A DNA stretch of 64,000 nucleotides from IMG/VR virus record IMGVR_UViG_3300047539_000055; one strand, written 5' to 3'. Under the pieces are notes generated by a model. The model was not told the origin of the DNA. It worked only from the letters and a program-made list of their open reading frames with translations, and ran no database searches. A program made the position numbers and the translations under genes. Origin of the DNA: a virus. Taxonomy: Duplodnaviria; Caudoviricetes. Positions 19,407 through 57,169 of the stretch are shown piece by piece; within the stretch, counting starts at the first letter, position 1, and the number at the start of each line of letters is the position of its first letter.

Positions 19407-19499
19407 ACATATAGTGTAACATATAGGAATTATAAAAGCAACTATATTTTCATATGCTTTTCCTCCATGATATTTATTTGCCCATTGCTAAATATAGAT

Positions 19500-26501: not shown

Positions 26502-26719
26502 CAAATAAACAACTTGTTCTTCTAATGTATCCAGATGCGGAGTGTGAATTGGATGACTCTAATGACTCAATATATTACCGCACAGATAATTATATTGTGT
26601 GTTATCCACTTTCGACTAATTGGGAATTCGAACTTGGTCGCGGAAAAACTAGAATTTGTGCGTGGAAGAATGCGGCAAGTTATGTCAATAAGCGTGTGAT
26701 AAATATGTTGGAATCATAA
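26498..26719 (+). CDS. YPDA/KLES-family protein (array B)
   Basis: MTNKQLVLLMYPDA...INMLES. Confidence 0.85.
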   Translation: MTNKQLVLLMYPDAECELDDSNDSIYYRTDNYIVCYPLSTNWEFELGRGKTRICAWKNAASYVNKRVINMLES

Positions 26720-26727
26720 GGAGTAAA

Positions 26728-26943
26728 ATGACAAAGCAACCAGAAATTGAAAATATCGAAGAAAGAAAACTTGTGCGTTCTTTACACAAAACAGCACATT
26801 GTCGTAGAACAGAAGATGGCGGATTTCATATTTCTTATAAAGGTAAAGATGGTAAAGAAATTTCGCTTGGCCATAGAGCAGAGACTCGTACAGAAGCATG
26901 GGGTAATGCGGCAAAAAAGATTGATAAGGAAATATCGGAATAA
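26728..26943 (+). CDS. Divergent YPDA/KLES-family protein (array B)
   Basis: RKLVRSLHKTA...EAWGNAAKKI; own AGGAG RBS. Confidence 0.7.
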   Translation: MTKQPEIENIEERKLVRSLHKTAHCRRTEDGGFHISYKGKDGKEISLGHRAETRTEAWGNAAKKIDKEISE

Positions 26944-27146
26944 TGAATAACAACAAACATTTCGTTCGAGAAATTATTCCGTCTGCTTTTTGTGTTGAAG
27001 TCGTGTCTACATTCATAATCTATGGCTTTGATGCAGAAAACAGACAATATGTTATTGGACATAGTGCATGTTCAGAAGAAGATGCATGGGAACAAGTGGC
27101 GGAAACCTTCCGTCAAAAAATGTTGGCGAAATTGGAATCAGAATGA
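26943..27146 (+). CDS. YPDA/KLES-family protein (array B)
   Basis: KHFVREIIPSA...MLAKLESE. Confidence 0.8.
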   Translation: MNNNKHFVREIIPSAFCVEVVSTFIIYGFDAENRQYVIGHSACSEEDAWEQVAETFRQKMLAKLESE

Positions 27147-27349
27147 ATCCTCGCAATATAGTGTTGAGTTCTTATCCACAGGCAGTTTGTAATGAAATCG
27201 CTGGACAGACCAGTTCCTATTTTTTGATCCACGATATAGGATCAATGAGACAAGATTTGATTGGTTATAGTATGGTTAGCGAAAATGATGCTTGGGAACA
27301 CGCCGCAGATGTTATTGGTAAAAGAATGTTGGCACAGTTGGAGTGGTGA
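27143..27349 (+). CDS. YPDA/KLES-family protein (array B)
   Basis: MNPRNIVLSSYPQA...MLAQLEW. Confidence 0.8.
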   Translation: MNPRNIVLSSYPQAVCNEIAGQTSSYFLIHDIGSMRQDLIGYSMVSENDAWEHAADVIGKRMLAQLEW

Positions 27350-27564
27350 TGGACGAAGATAATCGTACAACTAAAGAACGAGTGTTAGCTTTGTATCCAA
27401 ATGCAGTATGTAAAACAAAATCAGAAACTTCGGCTGGAGTCAATCGTTGGACTATTTGGAGCGATGATGATTGGATTGCTAATAGTTATTTAAGCGAAGA
27501 ACATGCATGGAAGTGGGCGCTAGATTTAACAAATCGCGAAATTCTTCAAAAATTTAGAGATTAA
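27349..27564 (+). CDS. YPDA/KLES-family protein (array B)
   Basis: TKERVLALYPNA...ILQKFRD. Confidence 0.8.
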   Translation: MDEDNRTTKERVLALYPNAVCKTKSETSAGVNRWTIWSDDDWIANSYLSEEHAWKWALDLTNREILQKFRD

Positions 27565-27588
27565 CAGTAATTGGAGGGAACAAACTAA

Positions 27589-27804
27589 GTGCCGAAAAAT
27601 GAACAGGTGTCAATTCGTGGGAAGGTTATAAAGACTCTTCCTAATACAACATGGTTAGTTGAAATTCCCGGCGATCAGCAAGTCACCGCGTATTTGGGTG
27701 GAAGATTGCGCAAAAACAACATTCGTATTGAACCAGGCGATGAAGTAGCTCTTGAGTTGAGTCCATATTCTTTGGAACTCGCCAGAATTGTGTATCGTTT
27801 TTGA
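27589..27804 (+). CDS. infA: Translation initiation factor IF-1
   Basis: 71 aa; GKVIKTLPN...AYLGGRLRKNNIRIEPGDEVALELSPYSLELARIVYR; GGAGG RBS, GTG start. Confidence 0.93.
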   Translation: MPKNEQVSIRGKVIKTLPNTTWLVEIPGDQQVTAYLGGRLRKNNIRIEPGDEVALELSPYSLELARIVYRF

Positions 27805-28025
27805 TGACCGATAAAGAGCAAGTTCTAAATATATACCCAGAAGCAGAAATACATCATGATTGGAAAAAAATCTGTTATTATAGGTGTAAAGGCAAAGGGA
27901 TATACATCAAAGGAAAATGGCTGTTCCTTTGCCCCGATTCAAATATATATGTTTCTAATGATGAAATATGGGCTGAAGGTTGGAAAATCATTCAATGCGA
28001 AATGCTCAAGAAGTTGGAATCATGA
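27804..28025 (+). CDS. YPDA/KLES-family protein (array B)
   Basis: MTDKEQVLNIYPEA...MLKKLES. Confidence 0.85.
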   Translation: MTDKEQVLNIYPEAEIHHDWKKICYYRCKGKGIYIKGKWLFLCPDSNIYVSNDEIWAEGWKIIQCEMLKKLES

Positions 28026-28276
28026 CACCAGAACAAAGAGTAAAACTCGTTTATCCAGAAGCGATGCTTCGTCATTGTTGGGTAAAGTTACCAACAAAAT
28101 GGGATTGGTATATTGATTGTGCTAATTCTCCATTAGCTTTTGCTGGAGAACGATTCGTCATACATATTGTGGCTGGTAACAAATTGTTGGCATACGGCGG
28201 AAAATATGAAACTCCACTATGGCGTAGAGCATGGAAATCAATTGAAAAAGAAATGCTCAAGAAGTTGGAATCATGA
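28022..28276 (+). CDS. YPDA/KLES-family protein (array B)
   Basis: MTPEQRVKLVYPEA...MLKKLES. Confidence 0.85.
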   Translation: MTPEQRVKLVYPEAMLRHCWVKLPTKWDWYIDCANSPLAFAGERFVIHIVAGNKLLAYGGKYETPLWRRAWKSIEKEMLKKLES

Positions 28277-28455
28277 CAGATAAAAAATTTGTGATTGGTG
28301 TATATCCACATGCTTATTGTTCAAGACAGTGGCAAGGATTTTTTATCATGGAATATCAAAAGGTATTATCTCATGCATGTATTCTTGAAGAAGATGCATG
28401 GCTTTCAGCAAAATTGATTATCAATCATATAATGTTGGAAAAGTTGAAATCATGA
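28273..28455 (+). CDS. YPDA/KLES-family protein (array B)
   Basis: MTDKKFVIGVYPHA...MLEKLKS. Confidence 0.85.
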   Translation: MTDKKFVIGVYPHAYCSRQWQGFFIMEYQKVLSHACILEEDAWLSAKLIINHIMLEKLKS

Positions 28456-28667
28456 CTGCTAAAGAAAATGTTCTGAATAATTATCCACTGGCAAGAAGTT
28501 GCTATGTTACTTCTGAAAATAAGCCAACTTATTCTGTGATTGCGCCTGAAAAAACTGGAAGTCTTATTTGGGATATGTATCTTGGTTGCGCGTATTCGGA
28601 AGAAGCTGTTTGGGAATCAGCTTGGGAATATGTTCAAATTCGGATGTTACAAAAGTTGGAATCATGA
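28452..28667 (+). CDS. YPDA/KLES-family protein (array B)
   Basis: MTAKENVLNNYPLA...MLQKLES. Confidence 0.85.
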   Translation: MTAKENVLNNYPLARSCYVTSENKPTYSVIAPEKTGSLIWDMYLGCAYSEEAVWESAWEYVQIRMLQKLES

Positions 28668-28879
28668 CAGATAAAGAGTTTGTATTATCCATTTATCCTC
28701 GCGTATATTGTAACCAAGAATACATAGGAAATACACTATATTACACGGTATATGCTACAAGAAAAGGTCATCATGCTTCCATTGTAACTTTTGCAGAAAA
28801 AGGTAAAACCTTGGATGAAATGTGGGGAAATGCAAAAGAAAAAATCCTTCATAAAACATTACAGGTTTTTGAAAAATGA
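28664..28879 (+). CDS. YPDA/KLES-family protein (array B)
   Basis: MTDKEFVLSIYPRV...LQVFEK. Confidence 0.85.
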   Translation: MTDKEFVLSIYPRVYCNQEYIGNTLYYTVYATRKGHHASIVTFAEKGKTLDEMWGNAKEKILHKTLQVFEK

Positions 28880-29073
28880 CAGATGAAAAGTTTGTAAAAA
28901 GAATATATCCGAGTGCTTATTGTGTAATAAAACGGTATGAACCTACATTACAATGCTGTCATATAGTAGAATATCAAAATGTGATATCTTCTGTGATGGA
29001 CACCGAAGAGAATGCTTGGTATTCAGCAAAGAAATATATTAATCATAAAATGATGAGTTTATTGGAATCATGA
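28876..29073 (+). CDS. YPDA/KLES-family protein (array B)
   Basis: MTDEKFVKRIYPSA...MMSLLES. Confidence 0.85.
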   Translation: MTDEKFVKRIYPSAYCVIKRYEPTLQCCHIVEYQNVISSVMDTEENAWYSAKKYINHKMMSLLES

Positions 29074-29267
29074 CAGACAAAAAATTTGTAATCAAAATAT
29101 ATCCCGATGCTCATTGTGTAACAAATTATGGTATTGATGGTGCTGAATATTTCAAAATAATAGAACACAGTCATTCATTATCTTGTGTAATGGACACCGA
29201 AGAAAATGCTTGGTATGAAGCAAAAAATGTTATCAATCGTAGAATGTTGAAAAAGTTGGAGTCATGA
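29070..29267 (+). CDS. YPDA/KLES-family protein (array B)
   Basis: MTDKKFVIKIYPDA...MLKKLES. Confidence 0.85.
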   Translation: MTDKKFVIKIYPDAHCVTNYGIDGAEYFKIIEHSHSLSCVMDTEENAWYEAKNVINRRMLKKLES

Positions 29268-29476
29268 CCACAAAAGAAAATGTTTTGAATATCTACCCGA
29301 AGGCAGAACTTACTTGTATTGGCAACAATAAAGTATTTTGCCTCCGAAGCCCACATAGTACATCAAAATTATTAACATGGACTAATATTATAGGCACAGG
29401 TAGTACGGAAGAAAAAGCGTGGGAATCGGCTTGGAAAATAATTCAAAATGACATGCTTACAAAGTTGGAATCATGA
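29264..29476 (+). CDS. YPDA/KLES-family protein (array B)
   Basis: MTTKENVLNIYPKA...MLTKLES. Confidence 0.85.
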   Translation: MTTKENVLNIYPKAELTCIGNNKVFCLRSPHSTSKLLTWTNIIGTGSTEEKAWESAWKIIQNDMLTKLES

Positions 29477-29715
29477 ATTATGAAGAATCGGTCAAAGCAG
29501 TTTATTCAGATGCAAAGTGCTTCAAACCAGCCGCGCATATTATAATTCAAAACGATCCCATGTGGGGAGATTATTTCGTGTTTCATCGTCGTGAATACGG
29601 GAAAAAGTTTCACGAATTTGAAGTGTTGAGTAATCATTGTAAAACTGAAGAATTTGCTTGGAAAAATGCATGGGAAAAAATAGAACAAGCCATGCTTAGA
29701 AAGTTGGAATCATGA
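29473..29715 (+). CDS. YPDA/KLES-family protein (array B)
   Basis: MNYEESVKAVYSDA...MLRKLES. Confidence 0.85.
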   Translation: MNYEESVKAVYSDAKCFKPAAHIIIQNDPMWGDYFVFHRREYGKKFHEFEVLSNHCKTEEFAWKNAWEKIEQAMLRKLES

Positions 29716-29948
29716 CAGACAAAGAACAAGTTTTGAATGTATATCCCGATGCGAAAATGGAAAACGCGGCTCCCATGTGGATTGGGTGGGGTAGTAATTT
29801 TAGATGGTCTGTTAATATTGTTGATCAACTTCAGGGAAATAACTATCTCTCTACAATTTGCTATGGTGTAACAGAAAAAGAAGCATGGAAAAATGCTTGG
29901 AATGAAATTCAACAAATGATGCTCAGAAAGTTTGAAGATGAATTATAA
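29712..29948 (+). CDS. YPDA/KLES-family protein (array B)
   Basis: MTDKEQVLNVYPDA...MLRKFEDEL. Confidence 0.85.
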   Translation: MTDKEQVLNVYPDAKMENAAPMWIGWGSNFRWSVNIVDQLQGNNYLSTICYGVTEKEAWKNAWNEIQQMMLRKFEDEL

Positions 29949-30138
29949 AGAACAGGTGTTGGCAATCTATCCACATGCGAAAGCAGAATTCAGAATTTGT
30001 GTTTGGTTTTTGCTGGTAAGAAATGACAGAGATGAATGTGTATATGATCTTTGTGTTTGTGGTGATTCTGAAGAAAATGTTTGGAAAGGCGGTTGGGAAG
30101 TCATTGAACAAAGATTGTTGGCAAGGTTTGAATCATGA
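29938..30138 (+). CDS. YPDA/KLES-family protein (array B)
   Basis: MNYKEQVLAIYPHA...LARFES. Confidence 0.85.
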   Translation: MNYKEQVLAIYPHAKAEFRICVWFLLVRNDRDECVYDLCVCGDSEENVWKGGWEVIEQRLLARFES

Positions 30139-30365
30139 AATCATACAAAAACAAAGTTTTATCTGTGTATGGCCGAGCCGAAACTTGGGAAGATAATGAA
30201 TGTAGTTCGGTCACGCATTATCCTTGGCGAGTTCATTATTTGCAGACACCTGATGAGCGTTATACGATTCTTGGTTTTGGTTATACCGAAGCTGATGCGT
30301 GGAAATATGCGTGGAAAGTAATTGAAAAAGAAATGCTGTGGGAATTTGAAAATGATAGACTATAA
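30135..30365 (+). CDS. YPDA/KLES-family protein (array B)
   Basis: KNKVLSVYGRA...AWKYAWKVIEKEMLWEFE. Confidence 0.8.
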   Translation: MKSYKNKVLSVYGRAETWEDNECSSVTHYPWRVHYLQTPDERYTILGFGYTEADAWKYAWKVIEKEMLWEFENDRL

Positions 30366-30558
30366 AAAAAGAGTTCGGAAAATTTATCCAGAGGCAAATT
30401 CTGATCACCCTTTTTTCATTATTGGATATGGTGGATTTTATATATGGGAATCTCTGAAATATTTGAAATGTTTATCTTATGATACTTCTGAAATTCTTGC
30501 TTGGAAAAAAGCGTGGGAAAGAATAGAACAAATAACTTTGGAGAAATTTGAAGAATGA
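30352..30558 (+). CDS. YPDA/KLES-family protein (array B)
   Basis: MIDYKKRVRKIYPEA...LEKFEE. Confidence 0.8.
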   Translation: MIDYKKRVRKIYPEANSDHPFFIIGYGGFYIWESLKYLKCLSYDTSEILAWKKAWERIEQITLEKFEE

Positions 30559-30797
30559 CAGACAAAGAATTTGTAATATCAATTTATCCCGGTGCAAGAT
30601 ATACTTCTTGGTTTAATCTTCATGTAAAAGAATCAGGAATTGAAGTCATAGAAGATAATCAAATTTTATTTACTTTGGGCTGGGTGTTTAGGCTAAACAC
30701 CCAGCCGGGCTGGGTGTTTAGTCACGATGAGGGAAAGGCATGGAAAAATGCCAGAAAAATATTGGAAAAAGATATGCTGAGAAAGTTGGAATCATAA
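30555..30797 (+). CDS. YPDA/KLES-family protein (array B) with internal inverted triplication
   Basis: MTDKEFVISIYPGA...MLRKLES. Confidence 0.85.
   Translation: MTDKEFVISIYPGARYTSWFNLHVKESGIEVIEDNQILFTLGWVFRLNTQPGWVFSHDEGKAWKNARKILEKDMLRKLES
30677..30721. repeat. Direct-inverted-direct 14-15 bp triplication
   Basis: GGGCTGGGTGTTTAG-G-CTAAACACCCAGCC-GGGCTGGGTGTTTAG. Confidence 0.9.
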
Positions 30798-31018
30798 TGA
30801 CAGACAAAGAATTTGTGTTATCCATTTATGAAGATGCCAAGTATATTACTTGGCAATCAAATCGTCACAGTGGATCATCCAATGATTCCAGCATTGAACT
30901 AACTGACAATGGAAAATACCGTAGTATTGGATGGAACGCTGACGATATTGAAGAAAAAACTTGGTGGTATTGTAGAATAGATATTGAAAGAGAAATGTTG
31001 AGAAAATTGGAGTCATAA
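30797..31018 (+). CDS. YPDA/KLES-family protein (array B)
   Basis: MTDKEFVLSIYEDA...MLRKLES. Confidence 0.85.
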   Translation: MTDKEFVLSIYEDAKYITWQSNRHSGSSNDSSIELTDNGKYRSIGWNADDIEEKTWWYCRIDIEREMLRKLES

Positions 31019-39360: not shown

Positions 39361-40287
39361 ATGTCAATTTTGGAATCAACATTGTGGATTGAAAAATACA
39401 GACCGAAAACGATAGAGGGATATGTTTTTTCTGATTTGAATCAAAAAGAACAAGTTGAAGCGTGGATTAGAAATAAGGACGTTCCTCATATTCTTTTTTC
39501 TGGTGGACCCGGAACAGGTAAGACTACGTTGGCACAAATTTTAGTAAACGAGATAGGCATTGATCCTTATGATTTTCTATTCCTCAATGCCAGCCGTGAA
39601 AATAACATTGATATCATGAAAGATAAGATTTACAATTTTATTGCTTTGACTCCGTGGGGAAAGCAAAGAATTGTTTTATTGGATGAAGCTGATTATCTCA
39701 CACCATATTCACAGGCAAATATGCGCGGTATGATGGAACAGTTTTCAAGCACTAGTAGATTCTTATTAACTTGTAATTATCCAAATCGCATTATTCCAGC
39801 TATTCATAGTCGTGTTCAAGATATTACCATCAACAAACTTCAATTGACAGAATTTACTATTCGTATGGCCGAGATTCTGGCTGCGGAAAATGTTGAATTT
39901 GAACTTGATGTGCTAGATGCTTATGTTCGTGGAACTTGGCCCGATCTTCGTAAGTGTATCAATAATTGTCAACAGAATTCTTTATCTGGTACATTGATCA
40001 AACCCGATAGTATTGATTCAACTAGAGATTATAAGATTGATGCTGTGGAATTATTCAAGAATGGCAAGATGCGTGAGGCAAGAGCATTGATTTGTAGTCA
40101 GATTCGTTCAGAAGATTTGGAAGACTTTTTCAAGTTTCTCTACACTAATTTGGACTTGTGGGGTCAGAGCAACGAAAAGAAAGACGCTGCAATTTTGATT
40201 ATTAGAAAAGGATTGATTCAGATTCCCATGGCGGCAGATGCCGAGATTTTGGTTGCGGCTGTGTTGGTGGAGTTGAGTCAACTATAA
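39361..40287 (+). CDS. Sliding-clamp loader ATPase, T4 gp44/RFC-like
   Basis: LWIEKYRP, GGPGTGKTT, LNAS, LDEAD, SR motifs. Confidence 0.93.
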   Translation: MSILESTLWIEKYRPKTIEGYVFSDLNQKEQVEAWIRNKDVPHILFSGGPGTGKTTLAQILVNEIGIDPYDFLFLNASRENNIDIMKDKIYNFIALTPWGKQRIVLLDEADYLTPYSQANMRGMMEQFSSTSRFLLTCNYPNRIIPAIHSRVQDITINKLQLTEFTIRMAEILAAENVEFELDVLDAYVRGTWPDLRKCINNCQQNSLSGTLIKPDSIDSTRDYKIDAVELFKNGKMREARALICSQIRSEDLEDFFKFLYTNLDLWGQSNEKKDAAILIIRKGLIQIPMAADAEILVAAVLVELSQL

Positions 40288-48580: not shown

Positions 48581-49450
48581 GTGATACTAAATCCAAAGAA
48601 ATTTAGCTCGTTGGAGAATCACTTGAAGAATATTCTGACTTTTCTATCCCTATTTTTCGTTTCATCCATCATATCTGTTGCACAAGGTAGTTATGTTGAT
48701 CAATATGCTTCAGATGCTCCGTTTATCAAGAATACACTATATCCAGCAGTAACGTTGTTATACACGCAAGATGACATGGGAACTATGGATATGAGATGTA
48801 CAGCTACGGCTTTTGAAGCCGTTTCTAACGGATATTTATTCTCAACTGCTGCACATTGTGCTGTTGAAAATAGTGCAGAGTCAGATGAATTTGGTAAGAT
48901 TAAAAATGCATCTTTTTTCATTACGTTAGATGAAGCCGCCTCCACTAAGACATTTCTTAAGGCTAATGTAATTGCTTGTGGTAAACAGATAAAAGGCAAT
49001 GATTTTTGCATTATTTACGTGAAGACTGCTAATTTGTTTCCTGTCGTTCCAATTGGTAAGGATGCTGCAAAACTTGTTGGAGAAAGTGTTGTTAATGTAT
49101 CGAGTCCTTTGGGATTGGGTAAGCAAACATTTTATGGTCGTATTACATTGCCAATATTGGACAGATCGGTAGTTGTTGATCAAATGAATTGGACTCATAC
49201 TGTTCTAATGCAGTTACCAGGCACAAATTCTGGATCAAGTGGTTCAGCCATTGTTTGCTTGGAGCAACATGCAATTTGTGGATTTTTGGTTGGAACAATC
49301 GCTGGTTCAACTGTTGTTGCTGTTCCAGTAAGCAGATTTTCAAACTTTTTAACAACGGTTAAAGCTTGTAAGAAAGATGAATTTTTGGAAAACACAAATG
49401 CAGAAGATGTTGCCTTCTCTTTCAAATGCAAGGATGATAAAAAGAAGTAA
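48581..49450 (+). CDS. Trypsin-like serine protease with signal peptide
   Basis: TAAHC, NDF, GSSGS triad; hydrophobic N-terminus; start may be TTG 48623. Confidence 0.8.
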   Translation: MILNPKKFSSLENHLKNILTFLSLFFVSSIISVAQGSYVDQYASDAPFIKNTLYPAVTLLYTQDDMGTMDMRCTATAFEAVSNGYLFSTAAHCAVENSAESDEFGKIKNASFFITLDEAASTKTFLKANVIACGKQIKGNDFCIIYVKTANLFPVVPIGKDAAKLVGESVVNVSSPLGLGKQTFYGRITLPILDRSVVVDQMNWTHTVLMQLPGTNSGSSGSAIVCLEQHAICGFLVGTIAGSTVVAVPVSRFSNFLTTVKACKKDEFLENTNAEDVAFSFKCKDDKKK

Positions 49451-49458
49451 ATACTGGT

Positions 49459-51204
49459 ATGGAATTCAGCCCACAATTCAAAGCATGGTTTGGAAGTTCT
49501 TTGGTTACTGACGCCGAAGATAATCCGCTAAGAGTTTATCACGGATCAAATAGATTAGAAGATATCTCAATATTTAAATCTGAATATAACAATGGATATT
49601 ACTTTACATCCGATCCAAATTATGCAGTGGAGTATTCAGGAACTACAAACATTGGTGCAAAAACGATTCCAGTATATCTTAGATTAGAACACCCGATGGA
49701 CTTCTTTGAATTTAGGGACATCGTTAGGGCAGCAAGAAAAGATGGAAGTGATCCTGTTAAAAAAACCATAAAACTTGGTTATGATGGAGTAATTACAGAT
49801 AAGGCGCATGAATTTGGTTGTCTTGATGTAAAGAATACGCCGAAAACATTTATTGTTTTCAGTCCTAATCAAATCAAATCTGCCATTGGAAATAAAGGAA
49901 CATATAATAGAGAAGACCCAAATATTACAGAATCCAAAGAATTGTTTTCAATTTTTAAAGAATCCAAAGCATTCAGAAATGATTCAATGGTAGAAAAGTA
50001 TTCCGTCAAAGAACTCAGTGAAATCCTGTTCGCAATGATGTTGACCTTACACCTTATTGGAGTTACAGAGCAATCTAAAAAATACTGCCACAATTCATTG
50101 AAATTTCCAAAATTCAATCATATTTTTTTGAGTAGCACAGATTTGGCTAATGCCATCACCACTTTGGTTCACGCAAAAGAGTACCTTGACAAACCAAATG
50201 TTGATGTTCCTGTCAATGAATTAAAAAGATATCTTCGTGGAATTATTTTAGGCACAAATACTGATCAATTTTCTCGTGCATTTTTCTTTCGTTTACAGAC
50301 GAAGCTTCGAATCAAAGATAGTTTGTTATCTACTTTGCGCCGAGAAATTGTTGATGGAAAAATACAAAAAAATAAAAATAAACTTGCAGTCCAGTTATAT
50401 CAATATCTAAGAAAATATAATAATTGTGATTTATTAGTTGTTTTGCAATCCTTGTTGGATGAATCATTAACAGAATCTAAAAAACATATTGCTTCGGAGT
50501 CCGAAATTCGTGCCTATATGGAGATTCTGAAACAAAAATATATTGAATCTGAAGGATCACTTGATGGAATGTGTTATGATGCTTGTTTGGATATGCAAAG
50601 AAAATTTCCTCAACTTCATTGGTTTAAAGGGATGGTAGAAATTTATAATGGTAAACGTTATAGTTGGGTGTCTCATAGTTGGATGGTATCTGATGATGGA
50701 ACTATATACGATCCAACAGTGAGTCAATTTAAAGATGTACCATCATATGAATTTGATGGAGACAAATGTTTGGTACAGAGAATTGATGGGAAACAGGGCA
50801 AATTATTCAAATCTTTAGAAGCAGCAAATAATTCAAAATCTATAACAGAATCTGTTAACCCTTCACAAATGATTTATCATGGAACTTTTGCTCCTCGTGC
50901 TAAACAGATTTTACAAACCAAGTTTTTAAACCCATCCTTGGCCGATACCTATGAATATGGAAAGGCAGTTTGGTTTACTTCAGACTTGGAAGATGCTTGT
51001 GAGTACGCTGGCAATGCTGGTGTTGTATTCATGATGCCAGAAGAAACTTCAAAACAATTTCGCTGTAAAAGAATTGTCTATCGTGATCCAAGCACGAAGG
51101 TAGTTGAACTCACTGTTTTAGTTAAAGAGCCGATTCCATTAAAATTGGTGAAGTATGAACGCGCCAGTGTTCTCCGCAAAACCTATGTAAGTAAATATAT
51201 TTAG
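49459..51204 (+). CDS. Multidomain (polyvalent-type) late protein with ADP-ribosyltransferase-like and Cys-His-Asp domains
   Basis: FKAWFG...PLRVYHGS...YFT...A.EY; GMCYDAC...HSW...YDPT; IYHGT...VWFTSD...EYA. Confidence 0.6.
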   Translation: MEFSPQFKAWFGSSLVTDAEDNPLRVYHGSNRLEDISIFKSEYNNGYYFTSDPNYAVEYSGTTNIGAKTIPVYLRLEHPMDFFEFRDIVRAARKDGSDPVKKTIKLGYDGVITDKAHEFGCLDVKNTPKTFIVFSPNQIKSAIGNKGTYNREDPNITESKELFSIFKESKAFRNDSMVEKYSVKELSEILFAMMLTLHLIGVTEQSKKYCHNSLKFPKFNHIFLSSTDLANAITTLVHAKEYLDKPNVDVPVNELKRYLRGIILGTNTDQFSRAFFFRLQTKLRIKDSLLSTLRREIVDGKIQKNKNKLAVQLYQYLRKYNNCDLLVVLQSLLDESLTESKKHIASESEIRAYMEILKQKYIESEGSLDGMCYDACLDMQRKFPQLHWFKGMVEIYNGKRYSWVSHSWMVSDDGTIYDPTVSQFKDVPSYEFDGDKCLVQRIDGKQGKLFKSLEAANNSKSITESVNPSQMIYHGTFAPRAKQILQTKFLNPSLADTYEYGKAVWFTSDLEDACEYAGNAGVVFMMPEETSKQFRCKRIVYRDPSTKVVELTVLVKEPIPLKLVKYERASVLRKTYVSKYI

Positions 51205-51254
51205 AATCAATAACTTACAATCATATTGACATTCCAGATCAAAACTGATATACT
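51205..51254 (+). promoter_or_regulatory. IHF-consensus site plus sigma70-type promoter of array C
   Basis: AATCAATAACTTA (WATCAANNNNTTR); TTGACA-17-TATACT. Confidence 0.7.
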
Positions 51255-51269
51255 CATTCTAGGTAAAAT

Positions 51270-51473
51270 ATGACCGATAAACAGTTTGTTAAAAACATTT
51301 ATCCTGACGCCAAGGCTCATACAGATTTTGGCGATAATGGTTACGTCGATTGGGCTATTTATAGTCATGCTAGAATCATATCAAAGTTTGTTCCGGAACC
51401 AACAGCAAAAATTGCGTGGAAAAATGCGGTAGCAAGAATTAACGAACAGATGATGGAAAAGTTGGAATCATGA
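51270..51473 (+). CDS. YPDA/KLES-family protein (array C)
   Basis: MTDKQFVKNIYPDA...MMEKLES. Confidence 0.85.
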   Translation: MTDKQFVKNIYPDAKAHTDFGDNGYVDWAIYSHARIISKFVPEPTAKIAWKNAVARINEQMMEKLES

Positions 51474-51664
51474 CCGACAAAGAATTTGTTTTACGAGTTT
51501 ATCCAGAGGCTATGGCTAAAAAAGATTTCTTTACCCATGATTGGGGTATTTGGAATAATGGTTCTTTATTGTCAAAATATGCACCCGAACTAACAGAAGA
51601 TATTGCTTGGGAAAATGCGAAAAAAAGAATTAACAAAGAAATGATGAGAAAGTTGGAATCCTAA
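51470..51664 (+). CDS. YPDA/KLES-family protein (array C)
   Basis: MTDKEFVLRVYPEA...MMRKLES. Confidence 0.85.
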   Translation: MTDKEFVLRVYPEAMAKKDFFTHDWGIWNNGSLLSKYAPELTEDIAWENAKKRINKEMMRKLES

Positions 51665-51861
51665 TGACTGCCAAAGAATTTGTTCTACGAATTTATCCAG
51701 ATGCTAAAGCCAGAAATGATAGTAATCATAATAATTGGGGTGTTTGGGACTATGACAATATCTTACTATCAAAATATGCTGTTGAAGTAACAGAAGAAAT
51801 CGCGTGGCAACACGTAGTTGATAATATCAACAACAAGATAATGAGAAAGTTGGAATCGTAA
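51664..51861 (+). CDS. YPDA/KLES-family protein (array C)
   Basis: MTAKEFVLRIYPDA...IMRKLES. Confidence 0.85.
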   Translation: MTAKEFVLRIYPDAKARNDSNHNNWGVWDYDNILLSKYAVEVTEEIAWQHVVDNINNKIMRKLES

Positions 51862-52175
51862 TGAAGTGGATGCCTTTTGTAAGTCTTGTATTTTCTTTCT
51901 TTTCATTGGGAATGGCATTTTATCTTGGTAAGAAAGCAATTGTGATGCGTAGTGAACAGGTGCTTCCCATTTATGTTGGTGTTCAACTATTTATGTCATG
52001 GGTGAATGGTGTGATATTTTTTAATGATATGAAATTGTATCACCCGATTGAATTAGTCTATGTCATTGGTTTTCCTATTGCCGCCGTATATGGATATTTT
52101 CGCGTCAAGCGTAAGATTCTTGGTGATCAATTTTTAGCAAAGTTGGAGACAGAATATGATGATCCTATTTTGTAG
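51861..52175 (+). CDS. Three-TM membrane protein with FLAKLET tail
   Basis: Hydrophobic segments; KLES-like motif near C-terminus. Confidence 0.7.
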   Translation: MKWMPFVSLVFSFFSLGMAFYLGKKAIVMRSEQVLPIYVGVQLFMSWVNGVIFFNDMKLYHPIELVYVIGFPIAAVYGYFRVKRKILGDQFLAKLETEYDDPIL

Positions 52176-52443
52176 TTCTCTTTTATTTTGGATTCTATGT
52201 GCGATAATGTCGTTCATGTTAGAAAGAGGTTTTGATTTGATTAATTTTCCGTTTAGTAAGCAACCAATGGAAAATCTATTTATAATGTTTATTTTCTTTG
52301 TTGGGCCGTTTGCTCTTATATCATCTATTTCTTGTGGTATAAATCGTAAAAATCTCAAAAAGGCTTTTTTAGCAAATTGGAAGCGATGGAGACACGATCA
52401 TCCAACTAAAGCTGAATGGGTGCTGAGAAAGTTTGAGTCATAA
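52156..52443 (+). CDS. Two-TM membrane protein with LRKFES tail
   Basis: Ends DHPTKAEWVLRKFES. Confidence 0.7.
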   Translation: MMILFCSSLLFWILCAIMSFMLERGFDLINFPFSKQPMENLFIMFIFFVGPFALISSISCGINRKNLKKAFLANWKRWRHDHPTKAEWVLRKFES

Positions 52444-52444
52444 T

Positions 52445-52732
52445 ATGCTTATTGGTATCATAATTTGGAGTCTGTGTAGTATATTAGTGCTGAATCTTAT
52501 GCTTGGTGAGACAGTAGTCAGAGATGATAGTTATTTTGGCTCACTAGAGACTTTACTGATTACGACGGGGATGATGACTTTATTAGGACCACTCGGAATA
52601 ATAGTCATTTTTGTTTGTTGTTTTATTACTCATGATTGGAATTTTCATAATGGGATATATCTATTTTGGAAGAAATGGAAATATGATCATCCAACTAAAG
52701 CCGAATGGGTATTGAGAAAGTTTGAATCATGA
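52445..52732 (+). CDS. Two-TM membrane protein with LRKFES tail (paralog of previous)
   Basis: Ends DHPTKAEWVLRKFES. Confidence 0.7.
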   Translation: MLIGIIIWSLCSILVLNLMLGETVVRDDSYFGSLETLLITTGMMTLLGPLGIIVIFVCCFITHDWNFHNGIYLFWKKWKYDHPTKAEWVLRKFES

Positions 52733-53031
52733 ATCTAATATATTTTGTGAATATTTCCTGTTTGCTAGTGAGTGGTGGTTGGGCAATAACGAAAGTAAAA
52801 CAGGCTTTCAAAAAACTAGATTTAGAGGAATTGTGGGCAGATTCTTTTCTGTTTCTCGGCCCCATAATGTTTTTGGACGGTATAGTATGGAAATTGGCGC
52901 ATTATTCATATTCATATTATGAAGGCGTAATAATTGGAATAATACTTATGCTTTTTGTTATGCAAATAATTGCTGGAAGACTTAAGAAAAAGAGATATCA
53001 ATATGCATTTTTGGAAAAGTTGGAATCTTGA
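52729..53031 (+). CDS. Three-TM membrane protein with LEKLES tail
   Basis: Ends FLEKLES. Confidence 0.7.
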   Translation: MNLIYFVNISCLLVSGGWAITKVKQAFKKLDLEELWADSFLFLGPIMFLDGIVWKLAHYSYSYYEGVIIGIILMLFVMQIIAGRLKKKRYQYAFLEKLES

Positions 53032-53080
53032 GTAGTAGATGAAAATTGGTGGGAAAACAGGTTTTGAAAAGGAGCAACAA

Positions 53081-53482
53081 ATGACGTATGATTTTGGATT
53101 TAACGATGACCTTGATGATGAAGAAGTAGTGGCCGATAACCATTTCCTGATCATGTGGGATGAACTTGGGTTGGATGGCATGGTTTCCGTTGACTATTGT
53201 AAACTGGGCGACGGCGGCGATATGCTTGCCAAATTGGAAGGTGTTCAAAATACTTACGCTCAAGAAATCGGCAGAACTTTGTGTATGTTCAAACTTAGAG
53301 CGCAAGCCAACTCTCAGCGTCATTATGAAATTTATTCTCTGACCACAACTGGTGATATTACAGAGAAATTCATCAAGGATATGTTTGAAAGCAATCCTCA
53401 GAATATCGTTGACCTCATTCGTGAGAAGGGTGTACAGGTGTATTCAAATCGTGTTTCAAAGAAAAGACCAAGGATTGTGTAA
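53081..53482 (+). CDS. Hypothetical phage protein
   Basis: AAGGAG RBS before ATG 53081; LRAQANSQRHYEIY. Confidence 0.7.
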   Translation: MTYDFGFNDDLDDEEVVADNHFLIMWDELGLDGMVSVDYCKLGDGGDMLAKLEGVQNTYAQEIGRTLCMFKLRAQANSQRHYEIYSLTTTGDITEKFIKDMFESNPQNIVDLIREKGVQVYSNRVSKKRPRIV

Positions 53483-53724
53483 TGATAGTTCGTGACAAAT
53501 ACGGTGTGAAATTGGCTGAGAAGGATTGGATAAGGCATTGTTGGTGGGATATTGTCACTGATAAATTTTTCTATGAGGTTGTACAAATCAGAGAATTGAC
53601 TCATTATGGTAATGTATTACCCGATTCAGGAGTAAGATTATTCAGTTCAAATGATTGTGAAAGACTTCCGAAAAATGAAAAAAAGAGAGAACAATTTTTA
53701 TTCCTGAGAAAGCTTGAACAATGA
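53482..53724 (+). CDS. Second small paralog family member (KLE tail)
   Basis: DKYGVKL..KDW...ERLPKNEKKREQFLFLRKLEQ. Confidence 0.8.
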   Translation: MIVRDKYGVKLAEKDWIRHCWWDIVTDKFFYEVVQIRELTHYGNVLPDSGVRLFSSNDCERLPKNEKKREQFLFLRKLEQ

Positions 53725-53981
53725 CAGATAAATTCGGAACGCCATTAAAAGTCGGAGATTGGATACATTATCACTTTTGGAATGCTGTTAATGATGGAGG
53801 TTTTTATGCTTCAAAAATAACAAGGATATGGCCTACCTTTATGCATGAAAACTGTGAGATGGCGTTCTTTATTGATAATGAAGGATATGAAGTACTGCGT
53901 TATGATTACTCTTTAGAAAAACTTCCAAGTAACAAGAAAGAACGAGAGCAACTTATATTTCTCAGAAAGCTTGAACAATGA
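53721..53981 (+). CDS. Second small paralog family member (KLE tail)
   Basis: MTDKFGTPLKVGDW...EKLPSNKKEREQLIFLRKLEQ. Confidence 0.8.
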   Translation: MTDKFGTPLKVGDWIHYHFWNAVNDGGFYASKITRIWPTFMHENCEMAFFIDNEGYEVLRYDYSLEKLPSNKKEREQLIFLRKLEQ

Positions 53982-54229
53982 TAGATATGAACGGTAAACG
54001 AGTACGAGTTGGAAGTTGGTTATTGTATCCATATTGGGATAGTAATAGTGGCCGTTACCGTGGCCGTTGTGTTGGCCAGATTACAAGCTTTTTTACAGGT
54101 GGTGCTGGATTGTCATATGCAGAAATTCGAGACAGTGCAAATCTGAGTTTTCTTGAAAATTCAGAAAGATTGCCATATCAGAAAAAGAAACGCGACGAAA
54201 TTTTGTTTCTGAAGAAGTTGGAAAGCTAA
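53978..54229 (+). CDS. Second small paralog family member (KLES tail)
   Basis: DMNGKRVRVGSW...ERLP...FLKKLES. Confidence 0.8.
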   Translation: MIDMNGKRVRVGSWLLYPYWDSNSGRYRGRCVGQITSFFTGGAGLSYAEIRDSANLSFLENSERLPYQKKKRDEILFLKKLES

Positions 54230-54516
54230 TGCGATTGAAACGAAGCGACAAAAATGGAAAGAGATTGAAAATTGGCGATTGGGTATATTATCCAAAGCTA
54301 AGGCTGTTTACAAATGATTTTGTATATGATTTTTTCGTTGGACAAATTACATCTTTTGGCGAGAATTTGGGTGGATGTTATGTCATACTAACTAATGATC
54401 CCGGAAGATACATTAATTATGTTGAAAAACTCCCGAAAAATGAAAAGAAACGAGAACAGATTGTACTTTTGAAAAAGTTTGAAGGTTGCCACACCATTAT
54501 TCAGCAACCCAAATAG
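54229..54516 (+). CDS. Second small paralog family member
   Basis: DKNGKRLKIGDW...EKLPKNEKKREQIVLLKKFEG. Confidence 0.8.
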   Translation: MRLKRSDKNGKRLKIGDWVYYPKLRLFTNDFVYDFFVGQITSFGENLGGCYVILTNDPGRYINYVEKLPKNEKKREQIVLLKKFEGCHTIIQQPK

Positions 54517-55024
54517 TATCAACCACTCTATAATTCACGACACATTCTTGAACAGCATGAACAACCCCTGACCACCATGGATGAAAATCGTGTCCACAAA
54601 GAATTCCATTCTCTTTCAATAATGGCTTCCACGCTAGAATATCAGCTTTTACATTTTCATAATCATGGGCAGCATCCAGAAAAATCAGGTCAAATTTTTG
54701 ATCAGCAAAATATTTGGCCGCTTCTAACGATGGCATCCGACAAGGTTCTACATTAGTATACAAAGCCATGTTTGATTTGAAGGCATCAAAGATATAGTCT
54801 TCTGACTTACCTTTCAATATTTCGGCATGTTCAACCGATCCTTTCCAGGTGTCAATAGCATGAACGATTCCTAAAGTGTTGGCGGCTATGGCTGAAGTGC
54901 TGCGGCCCATCCATGATCCAATTTCTGCGATGTTTTGGCAATTGCTACCTAAATCTCCCAATAATAGCAATTCTGTATCTGACATCCACCCTTCGGTAGC
55001 CAGCGCTGATGTAATATCTATCAT
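54497..55024 (-). CDS. Class I SAM-dependent methyltransferase (Methyltransf_24-like)
   Basis: EIGSWMGRS, IDTW, DLIFLDAAH.Y, G.LCGHD. Confidence 0.85.
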   Translation of the reverse strand: MIDITSALATEGWMSDTELLLLGDLGSNCQNIAEIGSWMGRSTSAIAANTLGIVHAIDTWKGSVEHAEILKGKSEDYIFDAFKSNMALYTNVEPCRMPSLEAAKYFADQKFDLIFLDAAHDYENVKADILAWKPLLKENGILCGHDFHPWWSGVVHAVQECVVNYRVVDTIWVAE

Positions 55025-55800
55025 GCTAATCTCCTTTTCAATTCTGGTAAAAATTTTTGAATAGATAAGTCTTCCACACCACAATTTAACGCATTGAATA
55101 CACTCCAATCAAATTTATCATCTTCCTTGGGAATATCGGCTCGTCCTCTATTACGTTTTTCAATATACTCATTTTTGCTCTTAGTTAAATAGTGATTTAT
55201 ACGAAATATATTTGATGAGGGATCAGAAGTTGCGCTGGTAATGAAAACGCCATTTTCATTGACCGTGCTTGATGTTGTTTGAAAAAAATGTGGATCGCCA
55301 CCAACTATTACTGGTTGATCTAATCGAATGATACTTTTGATATGTTTATCGCCATAAAATTCTAATGGATGATAAGTAAAACGTTCAATAACTGACCTTG
55401 AATCGTATTCTTCTAATCCAGAACTACCAAAGCATTTCCAATTGATTCCAATTGCTCCTGGTTGATCAATAAAATTTAACATATCTGGGAGTGGCATATT
55501 TGTGGGGCCGAAACAAAATTCATCAACATCAAAAAAACCGGTCCAAATTGGTTTTTGATTATTTTGATTAATAAAATGTTGGTATGCTTGTAATTGACAT
55601 GGTGGATCGCGATCCCACTCTGTAAGATCAACTATTCCTTGATCAATAAATGGTTGTAAAACTTCCAAATAATTATCGGTTGAATTGTTATTATAGAGGA
55701 AAAATTTAGAAAAACCTACGATTTGATGGAAAATTATCCACTCAGAAATATATTTTGCTTCGTTTTTGAAAATGGCACATATAACTAGCGGAACTGTCAT
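55021..55800 (-). CDS. Glycosyltransferase, GT92/GT2-like
   Basis: CAIFKNEAKYISEW..FH...G...YNN.S.D; DVDEF; NHY; TATAAATA upstream. Confidence 0.82.
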   Translation of the reverse strand: MTVPLVICAIFKNEAKYISEWIIFHQIVGFSKFFLYNNNSTDNYLEVLQPFIDQGIVDLTEWDRDPPCQLQAYQHFINQNNQKPIWTGFFDVDEFCFGPTNMPLPDMLNFIDQPGAIGINWKCFGSSGLEEYDSRSVIERFTYHPLEFYGDKHIKSIIRLDQPVIVGGDPHFFQTTSSTVNENGVFITSATSDPSSNIFRINHYLTKSKNEYIEKRNRGRADIPKEDDKFDWSVFNALNCGVEDLSIQKFLPELKRRLA

Positions 55801-55839
55801 AGAATCTCCTGCTTTATTTATAAATCGTCAAAATACTAT

Positions 55840-55894
55840 TTGCTTTTCCTATTCCTATGTGATACACTAAAAGTGTATTGAAGGAAACCAAATG
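55840..55894 (+). promoter_or_regulatory. Sigma70-type promoter/palindrome cassette, copy 2
   Basis: TTGCTT-17-TACACT; ATACACT-AAA-AGTGTAT; GAAGGAAAC RBS. Confidence 0.65.
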
Positions 55895-56101
55895 CATATA
55901 ATGAAACCAATTTGGTTAGCTACCGTAGATAAGATTCCTAGCTTATCAATAGTGGGTCATGAAATTTGTGATCCAAAACCACTTACTAGCGAAGAAGTTT
56001 GTGATATGTGGGAATGTCTCAAAAAGAGATGTGAAGTGTTAGAAGCAGAGAATAAAGACTTAAAGATATTAGGAGAAGTATGGCACATGCCCAGCAATTA
56101 A
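55892..56101 (+). CDS. Hypothetical protein
   Basis: ORF behind the promoter cassette. Confidence 0.55.
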   Translation: MHIMKPIWLATVDKIPSLSIVGHEICDPKPLTSEEVCDMWECLKKRCEVLEAENKDLKILGEVWHMPSN

Positions 56102-56616
56102 ATTTTATCGGTTCTGTTAACTCAAAATTTCCCAATCATTTTACCAAACAAAAAGTTCTTGAGATTGGTTCTTATAATGTCAATGGCTCTGTTCGTTCAT
56201 TTTTCAAGGATTGTGATTATCTTGGTATTGATGTTGCAGAAGGTAAAGAAGTTGATCTTGTTTGTAAGGGAGAAGAATTTAATGCGGAAGGTGGTTCATT
56301 TGATGTAGTTATTTCTTGTGAATGCCTTGAACATAATCCAGAATGGATTGACACCTTTGCCAATATGATTCGTTTGACGCGGCCCGGTGGATTGGTGATT
56401 ATGACATGCGCTACTGTTGGTAGAGCAGAGCATGGAACTACAAGAACTACTCCTTTGGATTCTCCTCTAACAATTAGTCTGGGATGGGATTATTATCGTA
56501 ATCTTGTGGTGGATGATTTTACGTCAAATTTTGATCTGGATGCCAATTTTGAAGAGTATGAATTTGTGCTAGAAATCATGAATCATGATCTGTATTTCTG
56601 GGGTATAAAGCAATAA
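56080..56616 (+). CDS. Class I SAM-dependent methyltransferase (Methyltransf_11-like)
   Basis: VLEIGS, GID, FDVVISCECLEH, RPGG. Confidence 0.85.
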   Translation: MAHAQQLNFIGSVNSKFPNHFTKQKVLEIGSYNVNGSVRSFFKDCDYLGIDVAEGKEVDLVCKGEEFNAEGGSFDVVISCECLEHNPEWIDTFANMIRLTRPGGLVIMTCATVGRAEHGTTRTTPLDSPLTISLGWDYYRNLVVDDFTSNFDLDANFEEYEFVLEIMNHDLYFWGIKQ

Positions 56617-56630
56617 AGAAAAGCTAAGCT

Positions 56631-56665
56631 AAAAGAAAAGGCCCACAAATTGTGGGCCTTTCTTG
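56631..56665. terminator. Bidirectional rho-independent terminator
   Basis: AAAGGCCCACA-aat-TGTGGGCCTTT between convergent genes. Confidence 0.8.
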
Positions 56666-56680
56666 TTGTGTTTGTAAAAC

Positions 56681-57169
56681 TTAGAATGTTACGCCTACTG
56701 GGAAACCGTTTGACTGACCGCCCAATGGACCAGGTTGTGGTGCGCCTACGGTGATAGCCGCTACTGTTACGCCAGCCACATTTACATTTGACCACGGAGC
56801 GGAAGCCGAACCGTTGCCAGTTGCAATTGTTCCAAGAGCCTGAATTGCGGTCTGGAGAGCAGTTGCGTTAGCTGCGTTAACACCTGTGGTAAGCAAACGA
56901 ACACCAATATTTGCATTGCCGCCGTTTTGACTAAGCAAAACGCAGTTGGCAGTAAGTGAGCCAAGAACTTCAATTGATGCGACCTGTTCAATGGTTTGAA
57001 TAACTACTGGCCATGCACCGTTTGGTCCCACGTTCCATGCACTGGTAATGTTTGCTGTTGCTGGAATAGTTCCGTTGCCAAAATTGATTTCAACGTAGTC
57101 AACGTTCTTACCGAATACTGAAATAGCGTTGCCATCAATTGCTGGATTTACTTTGTAAAGCTGTGCCAT
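56681..57169 (-). CDS. Probable virion structural protein
   Basis: A/G/N/T-rich; TAAATA, AGGAG RBS and own terminator. Confidence 0.55.
   Translation of the reverse strand: MAQLYKVNPAIDGNAISVFGKNVDYVEINFGNGTIPATANITSAWNVGPNGAWPVVIQTIEQVASIEVLGSLTANCVLLSQNGGNANIGVRLLTTGVNAANATALQTAIQALGTIATGNGSASAPWSNVNVAGVTVAAITVGAPQPGPLGGQSNGFPVGVTF

Follow-up and report, generated by a model that had tools for sequence, protein, structure and literature searches.

A helix-end tail shared at gene junctions by three unrelated families of small proteins in an operon of an uncultured jumbo phage

A helical tail of seven residues, hydrophobic-L-x-K-(L/F)-E-x, is common to three families of small proteins that an uncultured jumbo phage encodes and that are structurally unrelated to one another. 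In the window, that is, the whole stretch of 64,000 nucleotides analysed here, the motif is present in 12 of the 12 consecutive genes at 51270-54516 and lies at or near the C-terminus in ten of them; the count includes all 12 because the 147-aa gene carries an internal copy, DMLAKLEG. The tail is real and far above chance, as [MFLIV][LM]xK[LF]E occurs 23 times in the gene set of the window, whereas 200 shuffles gave 0.38 on average and never more than 3. The explanation we favor, to which we give about an even chance, is that the tail is a dual-use junction module, which both closes a helix and belongs to the start region of the following cistron, and which recombination exchanges between the genes of the array.

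The operon, which is putatively early, is summarized in Table 1. Nine of its 11 junctions overlap (as ATGA, as TAATG or with the start lying within the upstream gene), and in the other two the start falls 1 and 7 bases past the stop; the start following 52729-53031 is not overlapped. The ATG at 52156 is located inside the gene at 51861-52175, three codons past the tail FLAKLET. The membrane protein gene at 52445-52732 is a paralog of that at 52156-52443 (37% identity), and for the 147-aa gene the start at 53082, which is preceded by an AAGGAG site, is likelier than that at 53039. Promoter-like sites inside the operon showed no excess over shuffled sequences (15 versus 14.7), no plus-strand terminator was found within it, and terminator-like sites were no commoner than in shuffles. 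The junction DNA and its overlaps, ATGA or TAATG, are as the initial annotation described them. The eight proteins that it listed as ending in the tail, four membrane proteins and four of family 2, were all found with their tails at the coordinates given; however, two of these tails, FLAKLET and LLKKFEG, are not terminal. In 51861-52175, in 54229-54516 and in several family-2 homologs the protein runs on for another 5-15 residues past the motif, such that a strictly C-terminal recognition is unlikely.

Table 1. Promoter and genes of the operon, with the tail or internal motif of each product.
Feature	Position	Strand	Tail or motif	Remarks
Sigma-70-type promoter	51226..51254	+		Near-consensus (11/12 matches, TG-extended -10); heads the 12-gene operon
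Main-family gene 1	51270..51473	+	MMEKLES	ATGA overlap into next gene
Main-family gene 2	51470..51664	+	MMRKLES	TAATG overlap
Main-family gene 3	51664..51861	+	IMRKLES	TAATG overlap; missing in close relative L027
Membrane protein, 104 aa	51861..52175	+	FLAKLET (52131-52151)	Seven more codons after the tail
Membrane protein, 95 aa	52156..52443	+	VLRKFES (52420-52440)	
Membrane protein	52445..52732	+	VLRKFES (52709-52729)	ATGA overlap
Membrane protein, 100 aa	52729..53031	+	FLEKLES (53008-53028)	Missing in L027
147-aa protein	53039..53482	+	DMLAKLEG, internal (~53222-53245)	No terminal tail
Family 2 member 1	53482..53724	+	FLRKLEQ (53701-53721)	
Family 2 member 2	53721..53981	+	FLRKLEQ (53958-53978)	
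Family 2 member 3	53978..54229	+	FLKKLES (54206-54226)	Ser = AGC; TAATG overlap
Family 2 member 4	54229..54516	+	LLKKFEG (54466-54486)	Last gene of the operon; nine codons after the tail

The family to which the helix-end tail is native is the main family. These small dsRBD-like proteins of phages are very numerous, with 1582 clusters at E<=1e-3 (about 1,600, from metagenomes), and most of the best 150 share the ending. At the loci examined, every gene with the tail sits within a main-family array, and some array-embedded genes of related phages are without it. The tail is missing from the other coupled junctions of the window, of which more than 15 were compared, and from another tandem array that the genome contains; both present other ends instead, therefore stop/start coupling in general does not yield the tail. 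This comparison with the overlap constraint, a check proposed in the initial annotation, thus came out in favor of the tail as a feature of its own.

The bodies to which the tail is attached are unrelated, since hhalign profile-profile comparisons between families align only the last 15-17 columns, the main-family profile finds no match beyond the tail in any frame of 51800-54600, and the predicted folds differ; the initial claim that the membrane and family-2 bodies are foreign to the main family was thereby borne out. These proteins also fail the 'YP.A' test of the main family (an N-terminal helix with Y-P-x-A, and A-W starting the C-terminal helix). A frame-shifted descent of their genes from main-family genes was considered and rejected, as no frame of 51800-54600 matches.

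The AlphaFold2 (AF2) model of main-family gene 1 (51270-51473) is an alpha-beta3-alpha fold with a pLDDT of 93 and the tail inside helix 46-66. The best 30 matches in a structure search were nearly all dsRBDs, with Z of 5-6.3 over 57-65 of 67 residues (for the best match, Z up to 6.3 and rmsd 2.6 over 65 residues), scores that lie below the level separating true relatives from a common arrangement. The main-family body thus probably has a dsRBD-like fold, with putative RNA binding; it resembles the dsRBD in its alpha-beta-beta-beta-alpha topology but differs from it in lacking a Pfam sequence match, as two main-family members had no Pfam match at E<=1 and so none to PF00035. For family 2, the AF2 model of member 2 (53721-53981; pLDDT 89.5) shows a beta-barrel and a C-terminal helix at 72-85, and its structural matches are of the Tudor/chromo/PWWP type, such that an SH3/Tudor-like barrel plus C-terminal helix is the likely architecture. 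The models of both soluble folds show the tail as the last two turns of the C-terminal helix, the mean pLDDT of the last blocks being 93 and 86. The four membrane proteins each have one or two strongly hydrophobic 19-residue windows, which are absent from the soluble proteins.

Pfam and PHROGs searches with ten proteins gave no significant family for any of them. The DNA at 49000-57000 had no match among cultured phages, protein searches with the main family and family 2 returned chance-level matches only, and tblastn of two main-family members against the cultured-phage collection returned none. The membrane proteins had no homologs beyond near-identical contigs, a search for related loci with the family-2 alignment found no relative, and the exact 19-base junction pattern had a single, unrelated chance match in IMG/VR (L001). 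A predicted complex of a main-family and a family-2 member scored 0.01, which is evidence neither for nor against their interaction.

Sequence comparison shows the tail to be under purifying selection as a peptide, both across the three families and in other phages: its codons change synonymously and its residues do not. The first Leu is written with all six of its codons, and Ser as both TCN and AGC; related phages encode the same tail through TTA/CTG/CTT, AAA/AAG and TCT/AGC, also in non-family membrane and SH3-like proteins. The membrane-protein orthologs at L013:3705-3950 and L026:282-527 keep FLRKLES and differ in its Arg codon (CGG versus AGG), and the residues just upstream have diverged. 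The suggested comparison of DNA with amino-acid conservation hence favors the residues, which were kept through synonymous changes. As for homologs in other phages, ends such as this FLRKLES and the TMLRMLER of a family-2 homolog were retained, although some array-embedded genes in relatives are tail-less. No G-rich, residue-changing swaps at the Leu position, e.g., GTG (Val) or TGG (Trp), were seen in the tails. Conservation is no weaker for the surface K and E than for the buried positions, which helix packing alone does not account for, and terminal genes without a coupled successor retain the peptide. Variants look phage-specific in some genomes, with 7 of 7 members lacking the Glu in L019, and the nearest body neighbors come from the same phage in only 35 of 129 cases and usually from other phages, the body identities behind this comparison being low (0.3-0.5). 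Some orthologs of different phages have unusual tail variants in common, which argues against a strong homogenization of tails within a genome.

Superimposed on the peptide constraint is a second bias at the nucleotide level (AAG, NTG, AGR). In the tails of the window AAG is used in 27 of 35 cases versus 21% in the bodies of the same genes, TTG in 24 of 27 versus 24%, and AGR in 18 of 18 versus 50%; the bias is weaker yet present in 60 tails from eight other phages. Between the window and the L027 orthologs the last 21 nt are identical, and four of the five codons just upstream have synonymous changes. Codon context, namely avoidance of A runs and the identity of neighboring codons, was ruled out as the cause of the AAG and TTG bias. 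The link to a downstream gene was not significant (AAG in 53/75 coupled versus 6/8 uncoupled tails; NTG in 53/72 versus 5/8), and a relaxation of the bias in genes without a downstream partner fits single cases and was not significant with 11 uncoupled tails. Pairing of the tail with the anti-Shine-Dalgarno sequence was slightly stronger than that of synonymous recodings (-4.15 versus -3.16 kcal/mol, p ~9e-4), but the commonest junction sequence ranks no higher than the median of its 864 synonymous recodings, and its GGA is just 3 bases from the ATG, where 5-9 bases is the usual distance in this genome. An additional reading frame running across the tail was rejected, with 11 of 36 tails placing a TGA in the downstream frame just before the ATG. 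The GANTC sites created by the tail were also dropped as a signal, their number in the window being otherwise unremarkable (271 versus 227 expected).

Gains and losses of genes between close relatives mostly break at tail junctions. Against L002 (91% identical) both indels of the array do so, and against L027 (90% identical) three of the four break points fall at tails or junctions; one gene of L027 corresponds to two window genes fused together. In a tandem array of any kind, breaks are expected to fall at the ends of genes, and within family 2 the shared homology extends over about 65 nt and is wider than the tail.

According to the dual-use reading, the last seven codons and the overlapping stop/start would constitute one junction module under two superimposed constraints. 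As protein, it would supply the last two turns of a C-terminal, amphipathic helix and be held by purifying selection, and as nucleic acid it would be the stretch just upstream of, and overlapping, the start codon of the next cistron, with its own extra codon bias. Genes of the array would be gained, lost and fused through recombination within or beside the junction, in such a way that guest genes, those of the membrane and SH3-like proteins, would have acquired the same end and then kept it by selection. That recombination carried the tail into the other families and that the junction supports re-initiation is what we infer. Counting against the dual-use reading are a codon bias not significantly tied to the downstream gene and a main junction with only median anti-Shine-Dalgarno pairing; moreover, the tail is old and conserved across phages in three families, which a function of the peptide would fit no less well than a history of recombination.

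Such a function could be that of a dedicated tag, i.e., a portable C-terminal handle linking the three families to one partner, whether adaptor, protease, membrane complex or one another, with the likeness of the DNA as a by-product and about 45 hypervariable dsRBD-like proteins involved. Peptide-level purifying selection across three unrelated folds and several phages is what this proposal of the initial annotation would predict, and that part of it held; it would also be in keeping with the conserved surface K and E, with the restriction of the tail to genes embedded in main-family arrays, with the terminal genes that keep the peptide without a coupled successor, and with phage-specific variants as in L019, though the closest bodies are usually in other phages. 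We nevertheless regard the tag as rather unlikely: no common partner was found, and the tail is modeled with high confidence as the integral end of a helix and not as a flexible extension. Some proteins continue for 5-15 residues beyond the motif, some array-embedded genes of relatives lack it, the identities in the nearest-neighbor comparison are low, and a separate explanation would be needed for the codon bias as well as for the 21 nt that are identical in diverged orthologs. It is similarly doubtful, if conceivable, that more than 40 dsRBD-like binders plus the membrane and SH3-like proteins are wired to a common partner by a handle written in the junction and gained automatically on recombination. 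A degradation tag at the C-terminus (of the ssrA type, or another ClpXP/Tsp degron) does not fit, since it would call for an exposed, unstructured end with non-polar residues and the tail is helical in both models and ends in polar E-S or E-Q.

At the other extreme, the junction might be selected purely as nucleic acid, as RNA for re-initiation or as DNA for crossover, with the peptide as a passenger. The strong codon bias relative to bodies of the same genes, found across phages, the break points at junctions, the slightly better anti-Shine-Dalgarno pairing than in synonymous recodings and the position of the tail beside the downstream ATG even where it is not terminal (51861-52175) would agree with this; yet the residues are kept despite synonymous changes that remove the GG (TTA, CTT, CTA) and with Ser written AGC, G-rich residue-changing codons at Leu are absent, uncoupled terminal genes keep the peptide, and other coupled junctions use other sequences, hence we consider it improbable. 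A crossover or coupling element had been the other proposal of the initial annotation, and the codon bias and the indel breaks at junctions support it, but not the idea that any gene can be plugged into the array, as some array genes carry no tail. Convergence or chance, in which the constraints of the ATGA overlap and of a ribosome-binding site, or a hidden homology of the bodies, would give the same ending, has been largely refuted already and is very improbable. The ATGA overlap does force the last codon to end in A, and Glu as the second-to-last residue would be favored by a GGA core lying three bases before the ATG, but the tail-less coupled junctions and second array, the 0.38 motifs expected from shuffles, the different folds and the profiles that align over the tail only are contrary to it.

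Large phages possess long arrays of small early genes, and gene gain by such arrays is poorly understood. The operon offers a concrete and testable case, in which a coding junction that is common to three folds, and that several uncultured phages conserve as a peptide, coincides with the break points of recent gains, losses and fusions of genes. If the junction reading is true, a phage can swap gene bodies between fixed ends while the expression of the next gene is kept, and if the tag reading is true, some 45 diversified proteins have a common partner.

Overlapping stop and start codons (ATGA, TAATG) mediate translational coupling in bacterial and phage operons, and the genes studied here share with these the same overlaps, the single strand and the single operon headed by a promoter, the coupling itself being putative; ordinary junctions, in contrast, have no conserved upstream peptide, and the tail would seem to match the Shine-Dalgarno sequence rather poorly. 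The ankyrin/PRANC proteins of poxviruses and unrelated secreted effectors combine diverse bodies with a common C-terminal element that has known partners. By analogy, the array may be compared with them in joining many diverse bodies to a short conserved C-terminal element, but theirs are domains or disordered signals, whereas here seven residues of a structured helix are tied to the next start and have no known partner.

PeSL (promoter-early stem-loop) cassettes of T4-type phages, which are non-coding and intergenic, consist of a sigma-70-like promoter and a terminator hairpin, and recombination between their copies leads to the insertion, deletion and replacement of small genes of unknown function (Arbiol et al. 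2010, PMC2839356; Comeau et al. 2014, PMC4122927). The junctions described here are alike in being short conserved repeats that sit where genes adjoin in the accessory regions of large myoviruses, with probable recombination between copies, and in bounding the indels between close relatives (both versus L002; 3/4 break points versus L027). They differ from PeSL in that the repeat is coding, spans a stop/start overlap of 1 or 4 bases and imposes a shared peptide, and in that, instead of a promoter and hairpin per copy, there is a single strong promoter (51226-51254).

In the window, four membrane proteins and four members of a second family had been described as ending, downstream of three genes of the main 'YP.A' family, in the same seven-residue tail, hydrophobic-L-x-K-(L/F)-E-x. 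The initial annotation is correct on the eight proteins and their tails save for three points: the tail is not terminal in two of them, being followed by seven residues in 51861-52175 and by nine in 54229-54516, and an additional, internal copy of the motif lies in the 147-aa gene between the membrane and family-2 groups. With this internal copy and the tails elsewhere, the motif is therefore present in all 12 consecutive genes. It was counted 23 times in the gene set of the window vs 0.38 (maximum 3) in shuffled proteins, and a looser scan gave 36 tails, most of them held by the main family. The internal copy of the 147-aa protein (53039-53482), DMLAKLEG, is encoded by tail-like DNA and could be the fossil junction of a two-gene fusion; a likelier start for this protein is 53082, behind an AAGGAG site, and in the close relative L027 an AAGGAG site lies directly 3' of a membrane-protein tail. 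Outside the arrays, the 291-aa protein of 18612-19487 (minus strand) ends in the tail-like MFEKLENEN, written with different codons (AAA TTA), and its final codons contain the ATG of the next gene. The resemblance may be due to chance, or this may be one more unrelated protein with the motif.

The window derives from a metagenomic contig of 353,395 bp, whose clamp loader is 51.5% identical to its counterpart in the Pseudomonas jumbo phage PA5oct group; no DNA-level match of the region was found in cultured phages. Shine-Dalgarno sites in the genome are ordinary (GGAG-like, 5-9 bases 5' of ATG), and gene starts were picked by rule. Because a promoter precedes the 12 same-strand genes (see table), and promoter-like or terminator-like sites within 51270-54516 are not in excess of shuffles, we infer that this stretch is one early-type operon. 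Directly 5' of it lie two genes whose products were identified by eye only: a trypsin-like serine protease that seems to have a signal peptide, and a 581-aa protein whose two halves resemble each other.

Coordinates of features in the window and in related loci (L-numbers)
Feature	Position	Remark
Sigma-70-type promoter, near-consensus	51226-51254	heads 12 same-strand genes ending at 54516
Main 'YP.A' family	4305-4538, 21005-22728 (-), 25166-31018, 51270-51861	at least 33 paralogs in window
Second tandem array	L006:15123-18668	about 3-6.5 kb past window end; ~20 paralogs, ~60 residues each
Example tails with AAG, TTG/CTG and AGR preference	25385-25405, 26478-26498, 29692-29712	
IF-1-like translation-factor genes	27589-27804; L009:5442-5657	L009 copy: Pfam eIF-1a match
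Clamp loader	39361-40287	
Trypsin-like serine protease	48581-49450	
581-aa protein	49459-51204	

The main family is very large: in a library of 50%-identity clusters, 1582 belong to it at E<=1e-3. The same motif, variable in its last residue, ends most of the best 150 of these clusters, and the tail is thus native to the family, a few distant members of which are without it. The 'YP.A' proteins belong to no Pfam or PHROG family, and a tblastn search with two members gave no match in cultured phages; their middle is hypervariable, and the prediction of a dsRBD-like alpha-beta3-alpha structure is of high confidence. No description of the family or of the tail was found in the literature searched, which is weak evidence of novelty. 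In two phages, an IF-1-like gene lies inside or at the end of a main-family array. At L015:3804, L015:6834 and L014:5658, in related phages, the downstream family gene has lost its ATG, with TAAC, TAGA or CTAA in place of ATGA and an otherwise continuing reading frame; such genes may be decaying members or have non-canonical starts. The public gene calls of many members (P0021, P0032, P0045, P0060 and others) start about 19 codons too early, at an out-of-frame ATG that arises where the upstream gene encodes the conserved Ala-Trp, and their false N-terminal extensions are tail DNA read out of frame.

Hidden homology of the bodies, which the initial annotation had named as a possible objection, was not found: those of the main family, of family 2 and of the membrane proteins are unrelated. 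Profile-profile comparisons among the alignments of the main family (A1, 30 paralogs), family 2 (A2) and the membrane proteins (A3) aligned only the last 15-17 columns, and in no frame of 51800-54600 did the main-family profile find anything but the third family gene's tail. With AlphaFold2, an alpha-beta-beta-beta-alpha fold is predicted for the main family (pLDDT 93.1), whose best structural matches are almost throughout dsRBDs (Z 5-6.3 over 57-65 of 67 residues), and a small beta-barrel followed by a helix for family 2 (pLDDT 89.5), for which the structural matches are of the Tudor, chromo-barrel and PWWP types. The four membrane proteins contain hydrophobic segments and have no relatives beyond near-identical contigs; with a pairwise E of about 0.03, these four may form a single fast-evolving family. 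The two soluble models both predict the tail as the final two turns of the C-terminal helix, and its hydrophobics in the main family, as read from A1, extend an i, i+4 stripe starting at the conserved A-W.

The tail is selected at the peptide level, on and off the main family. In the window tails, the first Leu occurs in all six codons and Ser as TCN and AGC, and in arrays taken from IMG/VR and JGI metagenomes, which represent no fewer than eight further phages, the same peptide is encoded via TTA, CTG, CTT, AAA, AAG, AGG, TCT and AGC. Residue-changing replacements that would keep the RNA G-rich (Val or Trp for Leu, for instance) were found neither in these tails nor in those of the window. 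Ortholog tails of the window and its close relative L002 gain synonymous changes freely. An array-embedded membrane protein of a 360-kb phage (L013:3705-3950) and its ortholog (L026:282-527) both end in FLRKLES but differ in the Arg codon (CGG versus AGG) and in the residues just upstream; a further array-embedded membrane ORF (L026 145-285) has the same end. A family-2 homolog of the 360-kb phage ends in TMLRMLER and a 68-residue guest of the L014 array in MLYFLERD, and family-2 homologs from close relatives keep the tail in 13/13 cases, inside a longer conserved C-terminal helix and, in some, with 5-15 residues beyond it.

Codon choice in the window tails departs from that in the bodies of the same 38 genes: Lys is AAG in 27/35 vs 21% (p about 2e-12), the second Leu TTG in 24/27 vs 24% (p about 2e-12) and Arg AGR in 18/18 vs 50% (p about 4e-6), p-values that overstate significance given the non-independence of paralogs. 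In the eight non-family tails, Lys is always AAG. The bias is weaker but persistent in 60 tails of other phages (AAG 32/48 vs 25%, AGR 28/31 vs 46%, NTG 32/51 vs 36%). Between 52445-52732 and its ortholog in L027, which is 90% identical to the window, the last 21 bases are identical, and just upstream of the tail 4/5 codons have synonymous changes and four nearby residues are changed. The preference is not accounted for by neighbouring-codon context, by anti-Shine-Dalgarno pairing, in which the tails are only slightly better than synonymous recodings (-4.15 vs -3.16 kcal/mol) and the dominant consensus is median among them, or by the presence of a downstream gene, as the bias is not significantly weaker in the 11 tails without a coupled successor. 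Coupled and uncoupled tails differ only in the Ser codon TCA (49/56 vs 1/6), which the ATGA overlap requires. The minus-strand array favours AGG-AAA and the plus-strand arrays AGA-AAG, which hints at array-specific history or gene conversion; unusual variants common to orthologs in different phages speak against strong homogenisation.

The family-2 array has eight members in L002 (91% identical) vs four in the window, and the two sequences cease to be co-linear precisely where the first member ends (53724 / L002 508) and once more inside 54216-54247. Window segments 51664-51861, 51928-52443 and 52733-53064 are absent from L027, with 3/4 break points at tails or junctions, and its single 117-residue membrane gene corresponds to the first 22 codons of 51861-52175 plus the entire 52445-52732. 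Unequal recombination between repeated junctions would be expected to leave this pattern, which is supportive and not decisive, because any tandem array shows it and the family-2 homology spans ~65 bases.

The best fit, with about an even chance of being correct, is a junction module, made of the tail codons and the overlapping stop/start (ATGA, TAATG), under two simultaneous constraints: the helix end would be selected as a peptide, and the nucleic-acid stretch would hold the start of the next gene and often be the site of crossover. Through such a module, any gene settling in the array would receive the same ending, which selection would then retain. That the tail is purely a tag for a common partner is possible though distinctly less probable; a tag explains why Lys and Glu at the surface are conserved across three folds and why only array genes carry the tail, but does not account for the nucleotide layer, and no such partner was found. 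A pure RNA or DNA element is improbable, being difficult to reconcile with the synonymous variation.

Generic convergence or chance is largely excluded, and we hold it to be very improbable. The initial annotation had allowed that ordinary coupling of genes might impose the tail; it is not forced by generic stop/start coupling, since over 15 further junctions of the window, overlapping or abutting, have unrelated end residues and a second array of tandem paralogs, located just past the window in this genome (L006, about 15.1-18.7 kb), has quite different ends and longer overlaps. The nearest described system is that of the PeSL cassettes of T4-type phages, short gene-boundary repeats at which recombination shuffles small accessory genes (PMC2839356; PMC4122927). 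As in PeSL, the indels of the window junction are bounded by repeats; unlike the intergenic PeSL, the window junction is coding and has no promoter or hairpin. Its form is that of an ordinary overlapping stop/start, but ordinary junctions lack a common peptide. The second array, without a K-L-E-S tail, has a D-D-E-K-x-M-Y-L-M-F-x-G-W core, overlaps of roughly 10-20 bases and a conserved junction of its own.
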